Shown one piece after another: positions 42,407-47,188 of a stretch of 64,000 nucleotides of DNA. The position numbers and the translations under genes are program-made. Source of the stretch: SAR86 cluster bacterium AG-390-O18 (GTDB taxonomy: Bacteria; Pseudomonadota; Gammaproteobacteria; Magnimaribacterales; AG-339-G14); NCBI GenBank assembly GCA_003279605.1, contig QCHF01000001.1:26075-90074 (forward strand), given 5' to 3'. Each line of letters opens with the position of its first letter. The first letter of the stretch is position 1. Below the pieces are notes generated by a model. The model saw only the letters and a list, made by a program, of their open reading frames with translations. It was not told where the DNA came from and made no database searches.

Positions 42407-43090
42407 ATGGAAATAGAACTATATTTATACAATGTCCTAGTGAGATGGGGACACATCTTAGTTGGTATCGCTTGGATTGGGCTTTTATATTATTTCAATT
42501 TTGTGCAAACAGAATACGTAAAAGTTGCAGATCCGGATGCTAAGGCAGATGTTATGAAAAAATTGGCGCCTAATGCACTTTGGTGGTTTAGATGGGCTGC
42601 TTTTTTAACCTTTTTAACAGGTTTATATCTTTTGTATGTTCAAGAGAGAGCCATTACTACAGCTATAACTTTAGGGTCGCTCATGGGTATAATCATGATG
42701 TTGAATGTTTGGGGAATCATTTGGCGTAATCAGAAAATTGTTATTGGCCTTAAAGAAGGAGACGCGGCTGCAGCAGGAGCCAAAGCTGGTCTAGCCTCGA
42801 GGACAAATACTTTACTTTCTTTACCAATGCTTTATTTCATGGTTTCCTCAGCTCATGGTGGAACTGCTTCTTACCCGAAATCGTACCTTTTAATTGACCA
42901 ATCTGCTGCGGGTGGACCCATTGCAGGTTATTTAGGTTATGATTTTTGGATTGTAGTAGCTGCGGTACTTTTGATAGAGTTGAATGCAATTTATGGAAAA
43001 ATGTTTCCTGTAATTGCATCTGTAAGATCGGTTATAACTTCTAGCTTTATCTTAACTATTATTTTTTCTGGCCTAGTTTTTTATATTTAG
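42407..43090 (+). CDS. Integral membrane protein resembling the N-terminal membrane domain of the PuuD (urate hydroxylase) family; function unknown
   Basis: 227 aa and about 5 TM segments. The motif LVRWGHILVGIAWIGLLYYFNFVQ resembles the conserved first helix of PuuD-type proteins (from memory). No cytochrome c CxxCH motif is present. Confidence 0.45.
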   Translation: MEIELYLYNVLVRWGHILVGIAWIGLLYYFNFVQTEYVKVADPDAKADVMKKLAPNALWWFRWAAFLTFLTGLYLLYVQERAITTAITLGSLMGIIMMLNVWGIIWRNQKIVIGLKEGDAAAAGAKAGLASRTNTLLSLPMLYFMVSSAHGGTASYPKSYLLIDQSAAGGPIAGYLGYDFWIVVAAVLLIELNAIYGKMFPVIASVRSVITSSFILTIIFSGLVFYI

Positions 43091-43091
43091 G

Positions 43092-44372
43092 TCACTCGTC
43101 GCCGAGTTCTTCATCTTCTTGTACAATTTGAAGAACTCTCGCGATCTTAATCATATTATTTCTAATCAATACAGTTTCGATAGAGTAATTATCAATTTCA
43201 ATTTTGATATTGTTTTCAGGAATTGTTTCAACCTGATCGATAATTAATCCGTTTAAGGTTTTAGCTCCATTTATTGGAAGCTGCCAATTTAGTTTTTTGT
43301 TTAGCTCTCTCAATGGTATTGAAGCATCAATTAAATAACTACCATCTTTTTGCTCCATAATTTCTACAGTCTCTCTATCGATATCCGTAGCAAGCTCGCC
43401 AACAATTTCTTCTAGGACATCTTTGATCGTAACTAATCCCTTAACAGATCCATATTCATCAATTATTACAGCAACCGTCTTTTTATTTTTTTGAAAATTA
43501 AAAAGTTGTGTGCTCAAAGGAGTATTTTCTGGAATGAAGTAAGCTTCGTCTAAAGATTCAATCAAACTTTCAATTGATTTATCTTTATTTGAAAGAAAAG
43601 AAGTAATTCCATAAAGGTCTATAACTCCTCTTAGATCATCAAGAGATTCATTATAGACAGGTAAAAAATCCTTTTGATTGTTTTGAAGGTTACTGAGAAT
43701 ATTTTCTATCGGCTGATTTATATCTATACCAATTACTTCACTTCTTTGCGTCATAACTTCGTCAACGGAAACTTTATCTAGCTCCAAAACACTTATTAAC
43801 ATGTCCTGATATTTCTTGGGAATCAAGTCTCCAGAGTTTTCCAAGACGCTCTTTAATTCTTCAGGCGATAAATCTTCGTTAAATGAAGTTTCTTTTGTCC
43901 CCAAAAGCCTCATAAAAAAGTTCGAAAAGAAGTTAACAAACAAGACTAAAGGCCTGAGTATCTTTTGCAAATATTTAAGGATTAGAGATGCAGGAAGAGC
44001 AACTTTTTCTGAATTCAATGCCGCGAAAGTCTTAGGCGTAATTTCAGCAAATACTAAAATTATTAAAGTTAAGACAATTGATCCTATTACAACACCACTG
44101 TCTCCAAATAAATTCAAACAAAGGACAGTTGTAAGTGAAGCCGCAAGGATATTTACAAAGTTATTTCCTATGAGAATAACACCTAGCAATCTGTCAGGTC
44201 TTTTTAAGAGTTTGTCAGCTCTAATAGCTCCTTTATTGTTTTCTTTAACCAAATGTTTAAGGCGATACCTATTTAAGGACATCATTGCCGTTTCTACTCC
44301 AGAGAAAAAAGCAGAAAGAAATAGCAGAAAAACGATGCTAGAAAACAGCATCCAAGGATTAACGTCAGCCAA
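43092..44372 (-). CDS. CNNM/CorB (HlyC/CorC) family transporter-like protein (DUF21, CBS pair, CorC_HlyC)
   Basis: The N-terminal DUF21 (LSAFFSGVETAMMSLNRYRLKHL), the CBS pair and the C-terminal transporter-associated domain are present; 426 aa. Confidence 0.85.
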   Translation of the reverse strand: MADVNPWMLFSSIVFLLFLSAFFSGVETAMMSLNRYRLKHLVKENNKGAIRADKLLKRPDRLLGVILIGNNFVNILAASLTTVLCLNLFGDSGVVIGSIVLTLIILVFAEITPKTFAALNSEKVALPASLILKYLQKILRPLVLFVNFFSNFFMRLLGTKETSFNEDLSPEELKSVLENSGDLIPKKYQDMLISVLELDKVSVDEVMTQRSEVIGIDINQPIENILSNLQNNQKDFLPVYNESLDDLRGVIDLYGITSFLSNKDKSIESLIESLDEAYFIPENTPLSTQLFNFQKNKKTVAVIIDEYGSVKGLVTIKDVLEEIVGELATDIDRETVEIMEQKDGSYLIDASIPLRELNKKLNWQLPINGAKTLNGLIIDQVETIPENNIKIEIDNYSIETVLIRNNMIKIARVLQIVQEDEELGDE

Positions 44373-44427
44373 TTGTAGAAATTAAGTGAATTGTTTGCAT
44401 TTTTTTACAATTATAAGAAGGTTTTAC

Positions 44428-44455
44428 TTGAATACAAAATTAAATTACTTAGAAT
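44428..44455 (+). promoter_or_regulatory. Putative sigma70-type promoter of the rpsP operon (TTGAAT-16 nt-TAGAAT)
   Basis: TTGAAT is at 44428-44433 and TAGAAT at 44450-44455. It is followed by ACGCATCTCA, matching the groES promoter downstream region. Confidence 0.5.
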
Positions 44456-44474
44456 ACGCATCTCAAAGATATTT

Positions 44475-45533
44475 ATGGTAACTATAAGACTAGCTAGAGG
44501 AGGCGCTAAAAAGCGTCCTTATTTTCATATTACAGTCGCTGATTCAAGAAGAGCTAGAGATGGAAAATACATCGAAAGGGTAGGTTTTTTTAACCCTATT
44601 GCCTCAGCTCAAAATGACAGGCTTAATATAGATCATGAAAGATTAGACTATTGGGTGAGTAAAGGAGCTCAAGTTACCGAGAGAGTAAAAAACTTGATTA
44701 AAGAGTCAAAGCTTTCAATTGAAGATTTCAATCAGTTAATCGCTAAGAAAGAGAAACTCAGGTTAGTCAAACTTGAAAAGAAAAAAGCTTTAACCTCTGA
44801 AACAGACACTGAAAAAAGTTCTTCTGAAGGGGGAGAAGTCTCAGCTGAGACAGAAAATACAGAACCAAAAAGTACCAATAATAAACAATCAAATAATGAG
44901 GATAATCTAATGGAAAAAACTGAAGATATTATTGATAAGGTTGCAGAAGGTACAAAAGAAGTAGCTGAAGGAGCTGCTGAAGCTGTAACAGATGTTGCCG
45001 AAGGCGCAGTCGATGTTGCTGAAGAAGTAGTTGAAACAGCTGAAGATGTTGTTAAAGACGCTGCTGAAGCTGTAACAGATGTTGCTGAAGGAGCTGCTAA
45101 TGTAGCTGGCGATGTTGCTGAGACCGCTGAAGATGTTGTTGAAGACGCAGTTGATGCTGTTAAAGATGTTGCCGAAGGCGCAGTCGATGTTGCAGAAGAC
45201 GTTGTTGACACTGCAAAAGAAGTCGCAGGCGATCTTGCTGAAGGCGATGTTGTTGAAGCAGTAAAAGACGTAGCTGAAGGAGCAGTCGATGTTGCAGAAG
45301 ACGTTGTCGAAACTGCAGTTGATGTTGCCGAAGACGCAGTTGAAGCAGTAAAAGACGTTGCTGAAGGTGCAGCTGATGTAGTTGAAGACGTTATCGAAAC
45401 TGCTGAAGATGTTGTTGAAGATGCAGTTGATGCTGTGAAAGATGTTGCTGAAGGCGCTGCTGATGCAGTCGGTGATGCAGTTGATGCTGTCAAAGACGCA
45501 TTCACATCCGACGACTCTAAAGACGATAAATAA
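44475..45533 (+). CDS. rpsP: 30S ribosomal protein bS16 with a ~270-aa acidic repeat C-terminal extension
   Basis: The core [43 protein letters not shown]... aligns across the whole 82-aa E. coli S16. The frame continues without a stop to 45533. Start placed at the ATG at 44475; the ORF track begins 28 codons earlier at a non-homologous alternative start. Confidence 0.9.
44982..45500 (+). repeat. In-frame tandem repeat, period 87 nt (29 aa), about 5.5 units, inside the rpsP tail
   Basis: Unit starts (GCT/GCA GT. A.A GA. GT.) fall at 44982, 45069, 45156, 45258, 45345, 45432 and 45486. The spacings are 87, 87, 102, 87, 87 and 54 nt. The peptide unit is about [29 protein letters not shown]. Confidence 0.9.
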
Positions 45534-45542
45534 ATTATCAAG

Positions 45543-46052
45543 ATGACCTACCAAGATGATGATTTCATTTTGGTAGGTAATTTTGGCCGTCCAATCGGCC
45601 TTAAAGGAAGTATCAAATTAAATTCCTTTACCAGGCCTTCTGAAAATATAAAATCTTATAACTCTTTCTTTATGAAAGAGAACTCTGAATTTATTGAATT
45701 AGAAGTAAAAAAAATAACTACTTCTGGTAAAAATCTAATCATTTTTTTAAATAATTGTAATTCTCTTGATGAGGCTGAAGAAACCTTCAAGGGTAGAGAA
45801 ATTTTTATTTCTAAATTAGATCTACCAGAAGTAAAAGATAAGTTTTATTGGAATGATTTAATTGGTTTAGAGGTAATCATACGAAGCTCAGAAAAACCCT
45901 TAGGCAAGGTTCACTCGCTTTTGGAAACGGGCTCTAATGATGTCCTAATAATTAAAAATCCAAATCAAGAAGATATATTGATTCCATTCATCATGAAACA
46001 AGTAATTCTTGAGGTAACAGAAAAAAGCATTTATGTAGATTGGGAGGTTTAA
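45543..46052 (+). CDS. rimM: Ribosome maturation factor RimM
   Basis: 169 aa with G.FGRPIGLKGSIKL and a PRC-barrel C-terminus; sits in the rpsP-rimM-trmD-rplS operon. Confidence 0.9.
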   Translation: MTYQDDDFILVGNFGRPIGLKGSIKLNSFTRPSENIKSYNSFFMKENSEFIELEVKKITTSGKNLIIFLNNCNSLDEAEETFKGREIFISKLDLPEVKDKFYWNDLIGLEVIIRSSEKPLGKVHSLLETGSNDVLIIKNPNQEDILIPFIMKQVILEVTEKSIYVDWEV

Positions 46053-46790
46053 ATGAATTTTACTTTTGTTTCCTTATTTCCCGAAATCATAAGATCTGCT
46101 TTGAATGAAAGCATAACCAAAAGAGCAATTGAAAAGTTTTTGATCTCTTATGAAACTATAAATCCTAGGGATTATCTTAAGACTAAAGAAAGAATTGATG
46201 ACAAAGTTTACGGCGGCGGTCCGGGAATGCTTTTAAAATCTGAACCTTTAATGAAAGCTCTGGATGATGCAATTTCTAAATGTGATAGATCAGAAAGTAA
46301 AATTATTTATTTATCTCCAAAAGGTAAGCCATTTACTCAAGAGACTGCTGAGGCTTTGGCTTCAGAGAAAAATATAATATTTATCTGTGGTCGTTATGAA
46401 GGAATTGATCAGAGAATCATTGACCATTATGTCGATGATGAAATAAGTATTGGTGATTATGTCCTTTCAGGAGGCGAGCTACCAGCTTTGGTAGTATTTG
46501 ATGCAATCTCAAGAAACATCGAGGGCGTTTTGGGAGACGATGCATCTCTTGATCAAGAATCTTTTTCCAGAGGATTATTAGAATATCCTCAATATACTAG
46601 ACCGGAAAAAATGAAATTGGGAGAAGTTCCTAAAGAATTATTATCTGGAAATCATGCAGCTATAGAGCAATGGCGAAAGAAGCAGATGCTTGGAATTACT
46701 GCTTTGAGAAGAAAAGACCTTCTTGAAAAAAATGAATTATCATCTGAAGAAAAAGCTCTTTTGGAAGAATTTTTTGATGAACTTGAGTGA
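46053..46790 (+). CDS. trmD: tRNA (guanine37-N1)-methyltransferase
   Basis: Contains DDKVYGGGPGMLLK, ICGRYEGIDQR and DYVLSGGELPALV. Confidence 0.96.
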   Translation: MNFTFVSLFPEIIRSALNESITKRAIEKFLISYETINPRDYLKTKERIDDKVYGGGPGMLLKSEPLMKALDDAISKCDRSESKIIYLSPKGKPFTQETAEALASEKNIIFICGRYEGIDQRIIDHYVDDEISIGDYVLSGGELPALVVFDAISRNIEGVLGDDASLDQESFSRGLLEYPQYTRPEKMKLGEVPKELLSGNHAAIEQWRKKQMLGITALRRKDLLEKNELSSEEKALLEEFFDELE

Positions 46791-46834: not shown

Positions 46835-47188
46835 ATGAGTAGCAAAAGAACGTCTGTCCAAGTCATAGAGGCAGCTCAACTTAAAGATAATGTTCCTGAG
46901 TTTAATCAAGGGGATACTGTTTTAGTTGAGATTGTAGTTAAAGAGGGAGACCGAGAGAGGACTCAACCTTTTGAAGGCGTAATAATCGGCATTAAAAACA
47001 GAGGTCTAAATTCTGCTTTCACAGTTAGAAAAATTTCCAGTGGTGTTGGAGTTGAAAGAACTTTTCAAACTCACAGTCCGTTAATAAAATCCATCAAAGT
47101 CAAAAGGAAAGGTAAAGTTAGACAATCAAAGCTTTATTACTTAAGAGAACGCTCTGGAAGATCCGCAAGAATAAAAGAAAAAGTATAA
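46835..47188 (+). CDS. rplS: 50S ribosomal protein bL19
   Basis: Contains F..GDTV.V...V.EG.RER.Q.FEGV.I...[20 protein letters not shown]. Confidence 0.96.

Follow-up and report, generated by a model that had tools for sequence, protein, structure and literature searches.

SAR86 bacteria are among the most abundant bacterial groups of the surface ocean. The stretch of DNA analysed here (the window, 64,000 nucleotides in length) comes from contig QCHF01000001.1 of SAR86 cluster bacterium AG-390-O18 and is densely packed with genes at a guanine-plus-cytosine (GC) content of 34%, in a lineage whose genomes are 31–40% GC and 1.05–1.66 Mb in size and whose first isolate is HIMB1674 (bioRxiv 10.1101/2024.03.17.584874). 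On its plus strand the window carries rpsP, the gene for ribosomal protein bS16, whose product continues far beyond the S16 core into a long acidic tail that is the subject of this work.

The complete rpsP coding sequence occupies positions 44475–45533 of the plus strand and was defined by open reading frame (ORF) scanning and translation as 352 codons followed by a stop, with an orthologue of the same length in the SAR86 genome AH-321-K11. The surrounding open frame spans 44391–45533, the start is the ATG at 44475, and position 45533 is the final base of the stop codon. A first-pass annotation of this DNA had placed a fusion of S16 to a tail at 44721–45533; the fusion was confirmed, but that span holds the tail only, position 44721 being codon 83 of a gene that starts at 44475. 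Its statement that the frame runs for about 270 codons past the S16 core, up to rimM-trmD-rplS, was borne out by a single in-frame ORF of 352 residues. The partner genes follow on the plus strand, rimM at 45543–46052 (Pfam RimM), trmD at 46053–46790 (tRNA_m1G_MT) and rplS at 46835–47188 (Ribosomal_L19), and the order rpsP-rimM-trmD-rplS is also kept in related loci, placing the gene in the operon context of bS16.

Architecture of the rpsP product

Residues 1–82 (44475–44720, plus strand) form a canonical bS16 core, as judged from profiles, alignment with PDB chains, Foldseek and a ratio of non-synonymous to synonymous substitution rates (dN/dS) of 0.005–0.04. Pfam Ribosomal_S16 (PF00886) matched residues 8–68 at 85 bits (cut-off 27), TIGR00002 matched the product at 92.2 bits (cut-off 45.3), and solved S16 chains from Pseudomonas and E. 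coli aligned to residues 1–78, in agreement with the earlier assignment of the first ~82 residues to S16. The AlphaFold model of the core has a predicted local distance difference test (pLDDT) score of ~90 and matched S16 chains in Foldseek with a target-normalised template-modelling score of 0.88 and a root-mean-square deviation of 1.8 Å.

The core is followed by a Lys-rich helical extension, residues 83–110 (44721–44804, plus strand), with a pN/pS (the proportion of non-synonymous sites that differ relative to that of synonymous sites) of 0.23; AlphaFold places a helix at residues 82–110, with a pLDDT of ~80 dropping to 64. The window protein aligns through residue 122 with the 137-residue bS16 of Coxiella burnetii (PDB 9t0z), including the extension of that protein, and by analogy with solved long bS16 the Lys-rich helix is a probable anchor on 16S ribosomal RNA (rRNA) or uS4. 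Next comes a polar, acidic spacer rich in Ser, Asn, Glu and Thr, residues 111–145 (44805–44909, plus strand), which is predicted to be disordered (pLDDT 28–37), differs in length between clades and evolves fast: over residues 109–137 the window and a related sequence, L001, share only 31% amino-acid identity, with a pN/pS of 0.57. This succession of a basic helix at 83 to ~110 and a polar spacer at ~111–145 corresponds to the Lys-rich and then Ser/Asn/Glu-rich linker noted earlier. Over 63 codons of the linker, frame 0 contains no stops and the other two frames contain 3 and 11, and the linker remains in frame and free of stops in every lineage despite indels and fast change, indicating that the fusion is translated and that any internal initiation is an additional output rather than a replacement.

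The acidic domain itself comprises residues 146–352, 207 residues dominated by Ala, Val, Asp and Glu, in line with the ~190 residues of mostly A, V, E and D plus G, T and K that had been described at first reading. The composition computed for residues 141–352 is 23% Val, 22% Ala, 18% Asp, 16% Glu, 6% Lys, 6% Gly and 5% Thr, these seven together making up 96%; the window tail contains no Pro, and its net charge is −59, compared with +8 for the core and ~+5 for the Lys-rich helix. At the nucleotide level the tail has an 87-nt tandem period with 78–84% matches (Tandem Repeats Finder, TRF), equivalent to 29-residue units, and residue autocorrelation peaks at 7, 11, 18 and 29. The hydrophobic moment is coherent across ~200 residues at 3.63–3.67 residues per turn, peaking at 3.66 (z = 17.9 against shuffles), with Val or Ala at 49 of the 54 residues within 45 degrees of the moment and Asp or Glu at 42 of the 54 on the opposite face.

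Taken at 3.625 residues per turn, the moment keeps a constant phase within each of two segments of the domain, 146 to ~250 and ~259 to 343, both on the plus strand. Segment A, predicted to be an amphipathic helix at residues 146–250 (44910–45224), has a phase of −58 ± 8 degrees and a pN/pS of 0.046, overlaps a TRF array at 44973–45199, and consists of an 11-residue opening followed by 29-residue units. It is separated from segment B by a hinge, AGDLAEGD at residues 251–258 (45225–45248, plus strand), at which the moment falls to 0.13, the phase jumps and AlphaFold breaks the helix; the hinge amounts to a 5-residue insertion that rotates the amphipathic phase by ~140 degrees, and it is kept as ASDLAEGD in P0001 and as AVMDGDVKG in a clade that is 44% identical. 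Segment B, also a predicted amphipathic helix, covers residues 259–343 (45249–45503) with a phase of +82 ± 7 degrees, a pN/pS of 0.020 and a TRF array at 45252–45465. The protein ends in an acidic tip, TSDDSKDDK, at residues 344–352 (45504–45530, plus strand), in which K352 is invariant in a 16-sequence alignment.

Constraint, recurrence and a candidate internal start signal

Purifying selection on the tail is about as strong as on the core. Between the window and L001, dN/dS is 0.015 for the core, 0.195 for the linker and 0.020 for the tail; between L085 and L090 the corresponding values are 0.005, 0.53 and 0.048, and between the window and L081 they are 0.040 for the core and 0.033 for the tail, with dS of the linker saturated. 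The differences between the window and L001 tails are 71 synonymous and 7 non-synonymous. Twelve tails of 207 residues, which are as little as 79% identical in nucleotides, agree at 168 of the 207 positions, and 121 of these 168 use more than one codon. Even exchanges between Asp and Glu are 3–4 times rarer than synonymous changes at the same acidic codons. Orthologous repeat units are 97% identical and paralogous units ~70–80% identical, indicating that each unit has its own constrained sequence and that there is no concerted evolution. Such substitutions are what would be expected of a folded, functional domain held by a flexible tether, and they do not suit junk or a generic bristle. Rather than a featureless polyanionic string of low complexity, the tail is a strictly periodic, predicted amphipathic helical domain under strong, position-specific purifying selection.

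The same architecture was found in independent genomes. A scan of GTDB species representatives returned one full-length relative, CACOJO010000010.1, from the single-cell genome of uncultured SAR86 cluster bacterium AH-321-K11; its rpsP also has 352 codons, and its dS of ~1.0 relative to the window indicates that this is an independent genome. In a DNA-pattern scan of metagenomes from several projects, all contigs carrying an 11-residue tail motif (20 of 20) had it fused in frame to an S16 core, and the tail is exactly 207 residues long in 10 of 14 complete metagenome genes (352–354 residues in total), including that on the Sanger contig AACY020142036 of the Global Ocean Sampling (GOS) survey. 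A sister clade, P0016, is 44% identical and 325 residues long, and nearly all 220 members of its cluster have this length, one of them on a 1.31-Mb contig. Apparent 82-residue members of the 325-residue cluster were considered as short S16 genes and rejected, being truncated at contig ends, with the exception of L091. Variants of rpsP encoding 231–324 residues exist, mostly on short contigs, for which loss of units and collapse of repeats are both possible.

In L091 (ERZ28548065 contig_5153_pilon, 1.31 Mb; 2740–2920) a 1-nt T insertion after codon 82, ACTCCC[T]GACC, divides rpsP into an 82-residue S16 and a 188-residue ORF that starts at the internal Met. This insertion is probably a long-read assembly error, given the more than 200 intact cluster members, the adjacent CCC run and its origin in one pilon-polished long-read assembly; if the split is real, the split form is viable. 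The two comparisons proposed with the first-pass annotation, of rpsP length across related genomes and of sister genomes for a stop or frameshift between core and tail, both spoke for one gene, L091 being the one frameshifted sister sequence. We conclude that the fusion of core and tail is genuine, in frame and not an artefact of assembly.

The boundary between spacer and acidic domain coincides with a candidate internal initiation region (44886–44912, plus strand), identified from conservation and weak mRNA folding, in which GAGG at 44898–44901 is followed by an 8-nt spacer and the ATG at 44910–44912. This ATG encodes Met146, the sole Met of the tail and the first residue of the acidic domain. 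The GAGG-8 nt-ATG arrangement is present in 27 of the 27 sequences examined (the window, L001, L081, L085, L086, L089, L090 and L095–L114), which represent three of the four helical-tail clades, and it is kept in seven amino-acid contexts (NEDNL, NEDNT, KEDGS, KEEKS, TEGGE, KEEIN and TEEKN). The Glu at position −4 is always encoded by GAG, a codon that accounts for 20% of Glu codons in the window, and the 24 nt before the internal ATG show zero differences between the window and L001, compared with a proportion of synonymous differences (pS) of 0.45–0.78 elsewhere. Predicted mRNA folding energy around the ATG (−30 to +20) is −0.5 kcal/mol, among the weakest 3% of such intervals in the gene. 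Motifs resembling a Shine-Dalgarno (SD) sequence precede 10 of 47 long ORFs in the window (~21%), rpsP itself having none, and by chance 17 of 352 internal ATGs in the window (~5%) carry one, so that the presence of the motif alone is not significant and only its conservation counts. In the P0025 clade of SAR86 the arrangement reads GAGG-8 nt-GTC, without an internal start codon. The conservation of the signal suggests that the same domain is also made as a free 207-residue protein, which lends some support to the earlier idea of a moonlighting or separate domain, but no stand-alone homologue of the tail was found in the searches described below.

The surroundings of rpsP were also annotated. 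A weak sigma-70-like promoter candidate, TTGAAT-16-TAGAAT, lies upstream at 44428–44455 (plus strand) and matches the consensus at 9 of 12 positions; the number of such sites in the consensus scan is not above shuffle expectation. ORF scanning also returned two minus-strand ORFs antisense to the tail, of 269 residues (44732–45541) and 215 residues (44907–45554), which were rejected as genes because the substitutions fit the plus frame only and because these ORFs are free of stops only by virtue of the GAN/GCN/GTN codon repeat. Upstream, positions 42407–44372 encode a 227-residue membrane protein with a Urate_ox_N-like domain and a divergently transcribed CNNM/CBS/CorC_HlyC protein; neither matches ffh, which therefore appears not to be adjacent to rpsP here, and related SAR86 loci keep the same order. 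Rfam and tRNA scans found no tRNA, rRNA or Rfam family in the window.

Relation to known families and to other S16 tails

Profile searches with the tail gave matches above threshold to Rv1893-like (PF23706, 50–52 bits, cut-off 27) and Phasin_2 (PF09361, 44–46 bits, cut-off 24.9), and weaker Pfam matches to ApoLp-III, Apolipoprotein, YtxH, REF and ApoO. Against Phasin_2, the reversed tail still scored 34.8 bits and pattern-preserving shuffles 21–25 bits, and residue shuffles gave nothing; against Rv1893 the reversed tail scored 25.5 bits and residue shuffles again gave nothing. These control scores suggest that both matches report mainly amphipathic periodicity plus composition, and the excess of the Rv1893 score over its controls may stem from a short motif in common and not from shared ancestry. 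The NCBIfam phasin models TIGR01985 (21.7–24.3 bits, cut-off 99.7) and TIGR01841 (18.9 bits, cut-off 30.2) were not reached, nor were the gathering scores of the apolipoprotein profiles PF07464 ApoLp-III (31 against 36.3) and PF01442 Apolipoprotein (25 against 90). A membrane-anchored, ribosome-binding protein of the ElaB/YqjD/DUF883 type was also considered and rejected, with no DUF883 match at E ≤ 1 and no hydrophobic segment in the tail.

A phmmer search of 1.8 billion representatives with the tail returned 943 matches, heterogeneous long repeat proteins of 20–45% identity without a common architecture, which we take to reflect likeness of composition and periodicity and not a family. No stand-alone orthologue of the tail was found in this search, in a word-indexed search or in the metagenome pattern scan, so the homology search that had been proposed for the tail yielded neither a coherent family nor a free-standing relative. 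The earlier remark that the repeat was not recognised also stands: the long-S16 models PRK14520 (73.5 against 165), PRK14521 (44.9 against 209) and PRK14522 (58.7 against 192) were far below cut-off, the tail fits none of the curated or characterised families of S16 extensions, and no description of it was found in the literature on SAR86 S16 or on acidic or low-complexity bS16. The sequence of the tail therefore appears to behave as an 11/3-type amphipathic helix, and its membership of a described family is not supported. Very similar acidic A/V/D/E amphipathic repeats were observed on unrelated proteins (P0276, P0274 and P0278 of 355 residues, P0285 of 331 residues, P0259 and P0290), one 355-residue family carrying them N-terminal to a domain with a HELVH (zincin-like) motif and another protein carrying them C-terminal to an HdeD-like membrane domain, with a tail ending KAKDTFGGDKD. 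Besides S16 fusions, the word-indexed search returned unrelated acidic-repeat proteins of ~355 residues; the labels given to these by the Joint Genome Institute (JGI) (ElaB/YqjD, gas vesicle, MlaD) were set aside, as no profile match here supports them.

The survey of other S16 proteins covered the 80 best-matching S16 genes retained from the genome scan; these are nearly all gammaproteobacterial, and about 70 of them encode 76–94 residues. All SAR86 S16 entries inspected are long and acidic, the other SAR86 tails having net charges of −12 to −68 and different repeats; examples are AG-325-C22 (273 residues, (EEAPAEE)n, net charge −68) and a Tara bin (177 residues, (AAPEEAAKEE)n), and two further entries end at contig ends. 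In S16 proteins of 177–273 residues, acidic repeats rich in Pro, Glu and Ala (PEA) follow a basic segment in the SAR86 sequences L021, L002, L010 and L022 and in the alphaproteobacterial sequences P0061, P0066, P0086 and P0115, and many alphaproteobacterial S16 proteins of 190–250 residues (for example in Sphingomonadales) have the same order of basic segment and PEA-rich repeats. These tails, of which we found no description in the literature, look like a widespread class. A helical acidic S16 tail was also found in a 54%-GC organism with an ffh-rpsP-khpA operon.

The plan of bS16 core, basic segment and acidic tail thus recurs and is not unique to the window, and the first impression that such a tail is unexpected survives only in part, in that the constrained helical domain is undescribed but long acidic S16 tails occur in all SAR86 inspected and in many Alphaproteobacteria. 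Among the tails inspected, that of the window exceeds all others in length and is alone in having been shown to be a constrained helical domain. Tails of the PEA type, in Alphaproteobacteria and in AG-325-C22, share with it the core, the basic segment and a long acidic tail, but they contain 12–17% Pro and lack alpha-helical periodicity, whereas the window tail is free of Pro, helical by its periodicity and conserved position by position. Its acidic tip with a C-terminal Lys is common to other SAR86 tails: those inspected (L021, L002, L087 and L088), whatever their repeat type, end in a tip rich in Ser, Asp and Glu with a C-terminal Lys (..SSDDETK, ..PQDKEK, ..SSDNEKK), and the S16 of the 54%-GC organism, which is not SAR86, ends AVTGDDEEDEK. 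The tip could be a docking motif.

Lineage-specific C-terminal extensions of bS16 are already known. Long bS16 proteins have been solved from Mycobacterium (156–162 residues), Cutibacterium acnes (147), Flavobacterium johnsoniae (188) and Porphyromonas gingivalis (192), and their extensions cross the solvent face of the 30S body and reach uS4 and 16S rRNA (PMC10085706, PMC12123416, PMC7804294). As in these proteins and the 137-residue Coxiella burnetii bS16, the window extension starts after the core at about residue 80 and its first part is basic; unlike it, the solved extensions are 55–110 residues long, are not polyacidic and have no repeat-built amphipathic acidic domain, no long disordered spacer and no internal start signal. 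What is new here is the constrained acidic helical domain.

The domain itself resembles ApoLp-III, ApoA-I, phasins and group-3 late embryogenesis abundant (LEA) proteins in forming a predicted long amphipathic helix of ~3.67 residues per turn with 11-residue periodicity, and differs from them in a polar face of nearly all Asp and Glu, an apolar face of Ala and Val only, and profile matches that persist when the sequence is reversed. Class A helices that bind lipid carry Lys or Arg at the interface and use larger hydrophobic residues. Basic residues at the interface between the polar and apolar faces, the charge layout of class A, were looked for in the tail and not found, Lys making up only 6%, the flanking sectors being mostly Ala and Val and the back Asp and Glu. 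The C-terminal tip of SSB, the acidic tail of HMGB1 and Ocr combine a basic nucleic-acid-binding core with a flexible linker and an acidic element, or present nucleic-acid-like carboxylates. The window S16 resembles this group in its basic core, its flexible linker, its acidic element with a conserved C-terminal motif and its nucleic-acid-like wealth of carboxylates, but the tails of SSB and HMGB1 are short (10–30 residues) and disordered, and Ocr is a stand-alone protein. Two products are made through an in-frame internal start by IF2 (alpha/beta), ClpB (93/80) and CheA (long/short), and window rpsP likewise has an SD sequence and start codon inside the ORF at a domain boundary; unlike in those genes, internal initiation in rpsP is suggested by sequence conservation alone, and the signal is absent in one SAR86 clade.

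Interpretation of the tail

We interpret the tail as a lineage-specific C-terminal domain of bS16 in SAR86 (Magnimaribacterales). The structural and evolutionary part of this interpretation is very probably correct; the functional mechanism is tentative and less likely than not, and the whole statement, with structure, evolution and function taken together, falls just on the probable side. By analogy with the solved long bS16 proteins, the basic helix would run along the solvent face of the 30S body in the direction of uS4 and helix 17 (h17) of 16S rRNA, and the spacer would act as a flexible tether. The Ala/Val faces would pack against one another, giving a hairpin or bundle of helices coated entirely with carboxylates, and each small subunit would thereby gain, close to where mRNA enters, a folded polyanionic rod that resembles nucleic acid. 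This rod may bind cations or basic partners, or it may repel RNA on that side of the subunit, and the conserved internal SD sequence and ATG may additionally give rise to a free copy of the domain. In an extension of this scheme, rpsP would have two outputs, initiation at codon 1 giving bS16 with a tethered domain and initiation at Met146 giving the free domain. The domain would be a new type of folded acidic module resembling nucleic acid, preserved in genomes that are among the most streamlined in the ocean; it would act both in cis, on the 30S body, and in trans, and could serve to decoy or escort basic RNA-binding proteins or to modulate processes close to uS4 and the mRNA-entry side. Such a dual role, suggested by the conserved start signal, is conceivable but rather doubtful.

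Several observations weigh against the proposed domain or its mechanism. AlphaFold, run as the first-pass annotation had proposed, gave an all-helical tail broken at the hinge, but with a pLDDT of only 50–60 in both models, and Val has little tendency to form helices. A Foldseek search with the tail-only model found no natural structural relative and returned only de novo four-helix bundles (E ≥ 0.01), and with the full-length model it returned S16 core matches only. A matched antiparallel hairpin had been considered from the difference of one unit per segment between the window (103/86) and P0001 (76/57), and was dropped in view of other contigs (105/57, 47/57); the lengths of segments A and B vary independently in some contigs (105/57, 76/57, 47/57), which argues against a simple matched hairpin unless these contigs are collapsed assemblies. 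The ~55 added charges compare with ~1,500 rRNA phosphates, or ~3% of the charge of 16S rRNA, making a global charge effect unlikely. Other SAR86 lineages carry a Pro-containing, non-helical acidic repeat that apparently does the same job, so that the function common to these tails may not depend on a defined fold.

Three alternatives were given the least weight. That the fusion is an artefact, through mis-assembly of repeats or the wrong joining of two genes, would account for the shorter or frameshifted versions on some short contigs (L095, L097, P0005) and for the split gene of L091, but a single-cell genome, many Illumina assemblies of different projects and the Sanger GOS contig all show the identical architecture, and the substitution pattern backs the reading frame, so that we give this explanation next to no credence. 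Neutral low-complexity expansion by replication slippage, tolerated at a solvent-exposed C-terminus, would agree with the tandem 87-nt units, with total lengths of 231–354 residues between contigs and with the quite different acidic repeats of other lineages; it is highly improbable and already largely refuted by the dN/dS of 0.02–0.05, by the 168 of 207 positions that are invariant despite ~20% nucleotide divergence, by orthologous repeats at 97% and paralogous ones at ~70–80% identity without concerted evolution, by a hinge and tip that are conserved at 44% overall identity and by the streamlined state of SAR86 genomes, of 1.05–1.66 Mb (bioRxiv 10.1101/2024.03.17.584874). A phasin- or apolipoprotein-like domain that tethers ribosomes to lipid, polyhydroxyalkanoate (PHA) or membrane surfaces is suggested by the Phasin_2 and Rv1893 scores above cut-off, the weaker apolipoprotein-type matches and an 11/3-type periodicity typical of surface-binding helices. 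The Phasin_2 scores of the reversed and pattern-shuffled tail nevertheless point to periodicity and composition rather than homology, the NCBIfam phasin models are far below cut-off, and a nearly all-acidic polar face without interfacial Lys or Arg, opposite an apolar face of Ala and Val only, is a poor fit for anionic bacterial membranes, which leaves such a tether very unlikely.

The two other alternatives assign the acidic domain a different role. In one, the functional entity would be the free 207-residue acidic helical protein, and the S16 fusion a relic or by-product of a stop codon lost before a former downstream gene. The invariance of GAGG-8 nt-ATG in clades 1–3, in seven contexts and always with GAG at −4, the unchanged 24 nt upstream between the window and L001, the position of the ATG where the mRNA of the gene is predicted to fold least, the rarity of any SD sequence among window genes (~21%) and the L091 tail ORF that begins exactly at the internal Met all favour this; a linker that is free of stops and in frame in every lineage, a P0025 clade without the internal Met, the lack of a stand-alone homologue in the tail searches, a chance rate of ~5% for the motif and the probability that the L091 insertion, beside a CCC run in a long-read assembly, is an error make it unlikely. 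In the other, the acidic tail would be an intramolecular chaperone or RNA mimic that shields the basic S16 core and Lys-rich helix until docking on 16S rRNA, and may escort other basic ribosomal proteins in 30S assembly. The charges are complementary (+8 and ~+5 against −59), the length and flexibility of the spacer would let the tail fold back, S16 enters the subunit early in assembly (PMC10931766), and acidity rather than sequence is what the SAR86 tail types have in common. A charge of −59 is, however, far beyond what is needed to neutralise +13, and position-specific conservation and amphipathic periodicity are left unexplained, making this role quite improbable.

We retain the interpretation of the tail as a lineage-specific bS16 domain. 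Streamlined SAR86 genomes devote ~0.8 kb to extending a primary 30S assembly protein and keep the extension under selection near that on the core, which points to an unrecognised lineage-specific feature of the ribosome. Should the tail reside on ribosomes, the small subunit of SAR86 would bear a folded acidic domain without counterpart in any solved ribosome; should the internal start be used, rpsP would be a naturally occurring case in which one ribosomal protein gene yields two products. The acidic S16 tails of Alphaproteobacteria, likewise uncharacterised, gain interest from this result, and the question can now be tested, as a SAR86 isolate exists and ocean metaproteomes are public.

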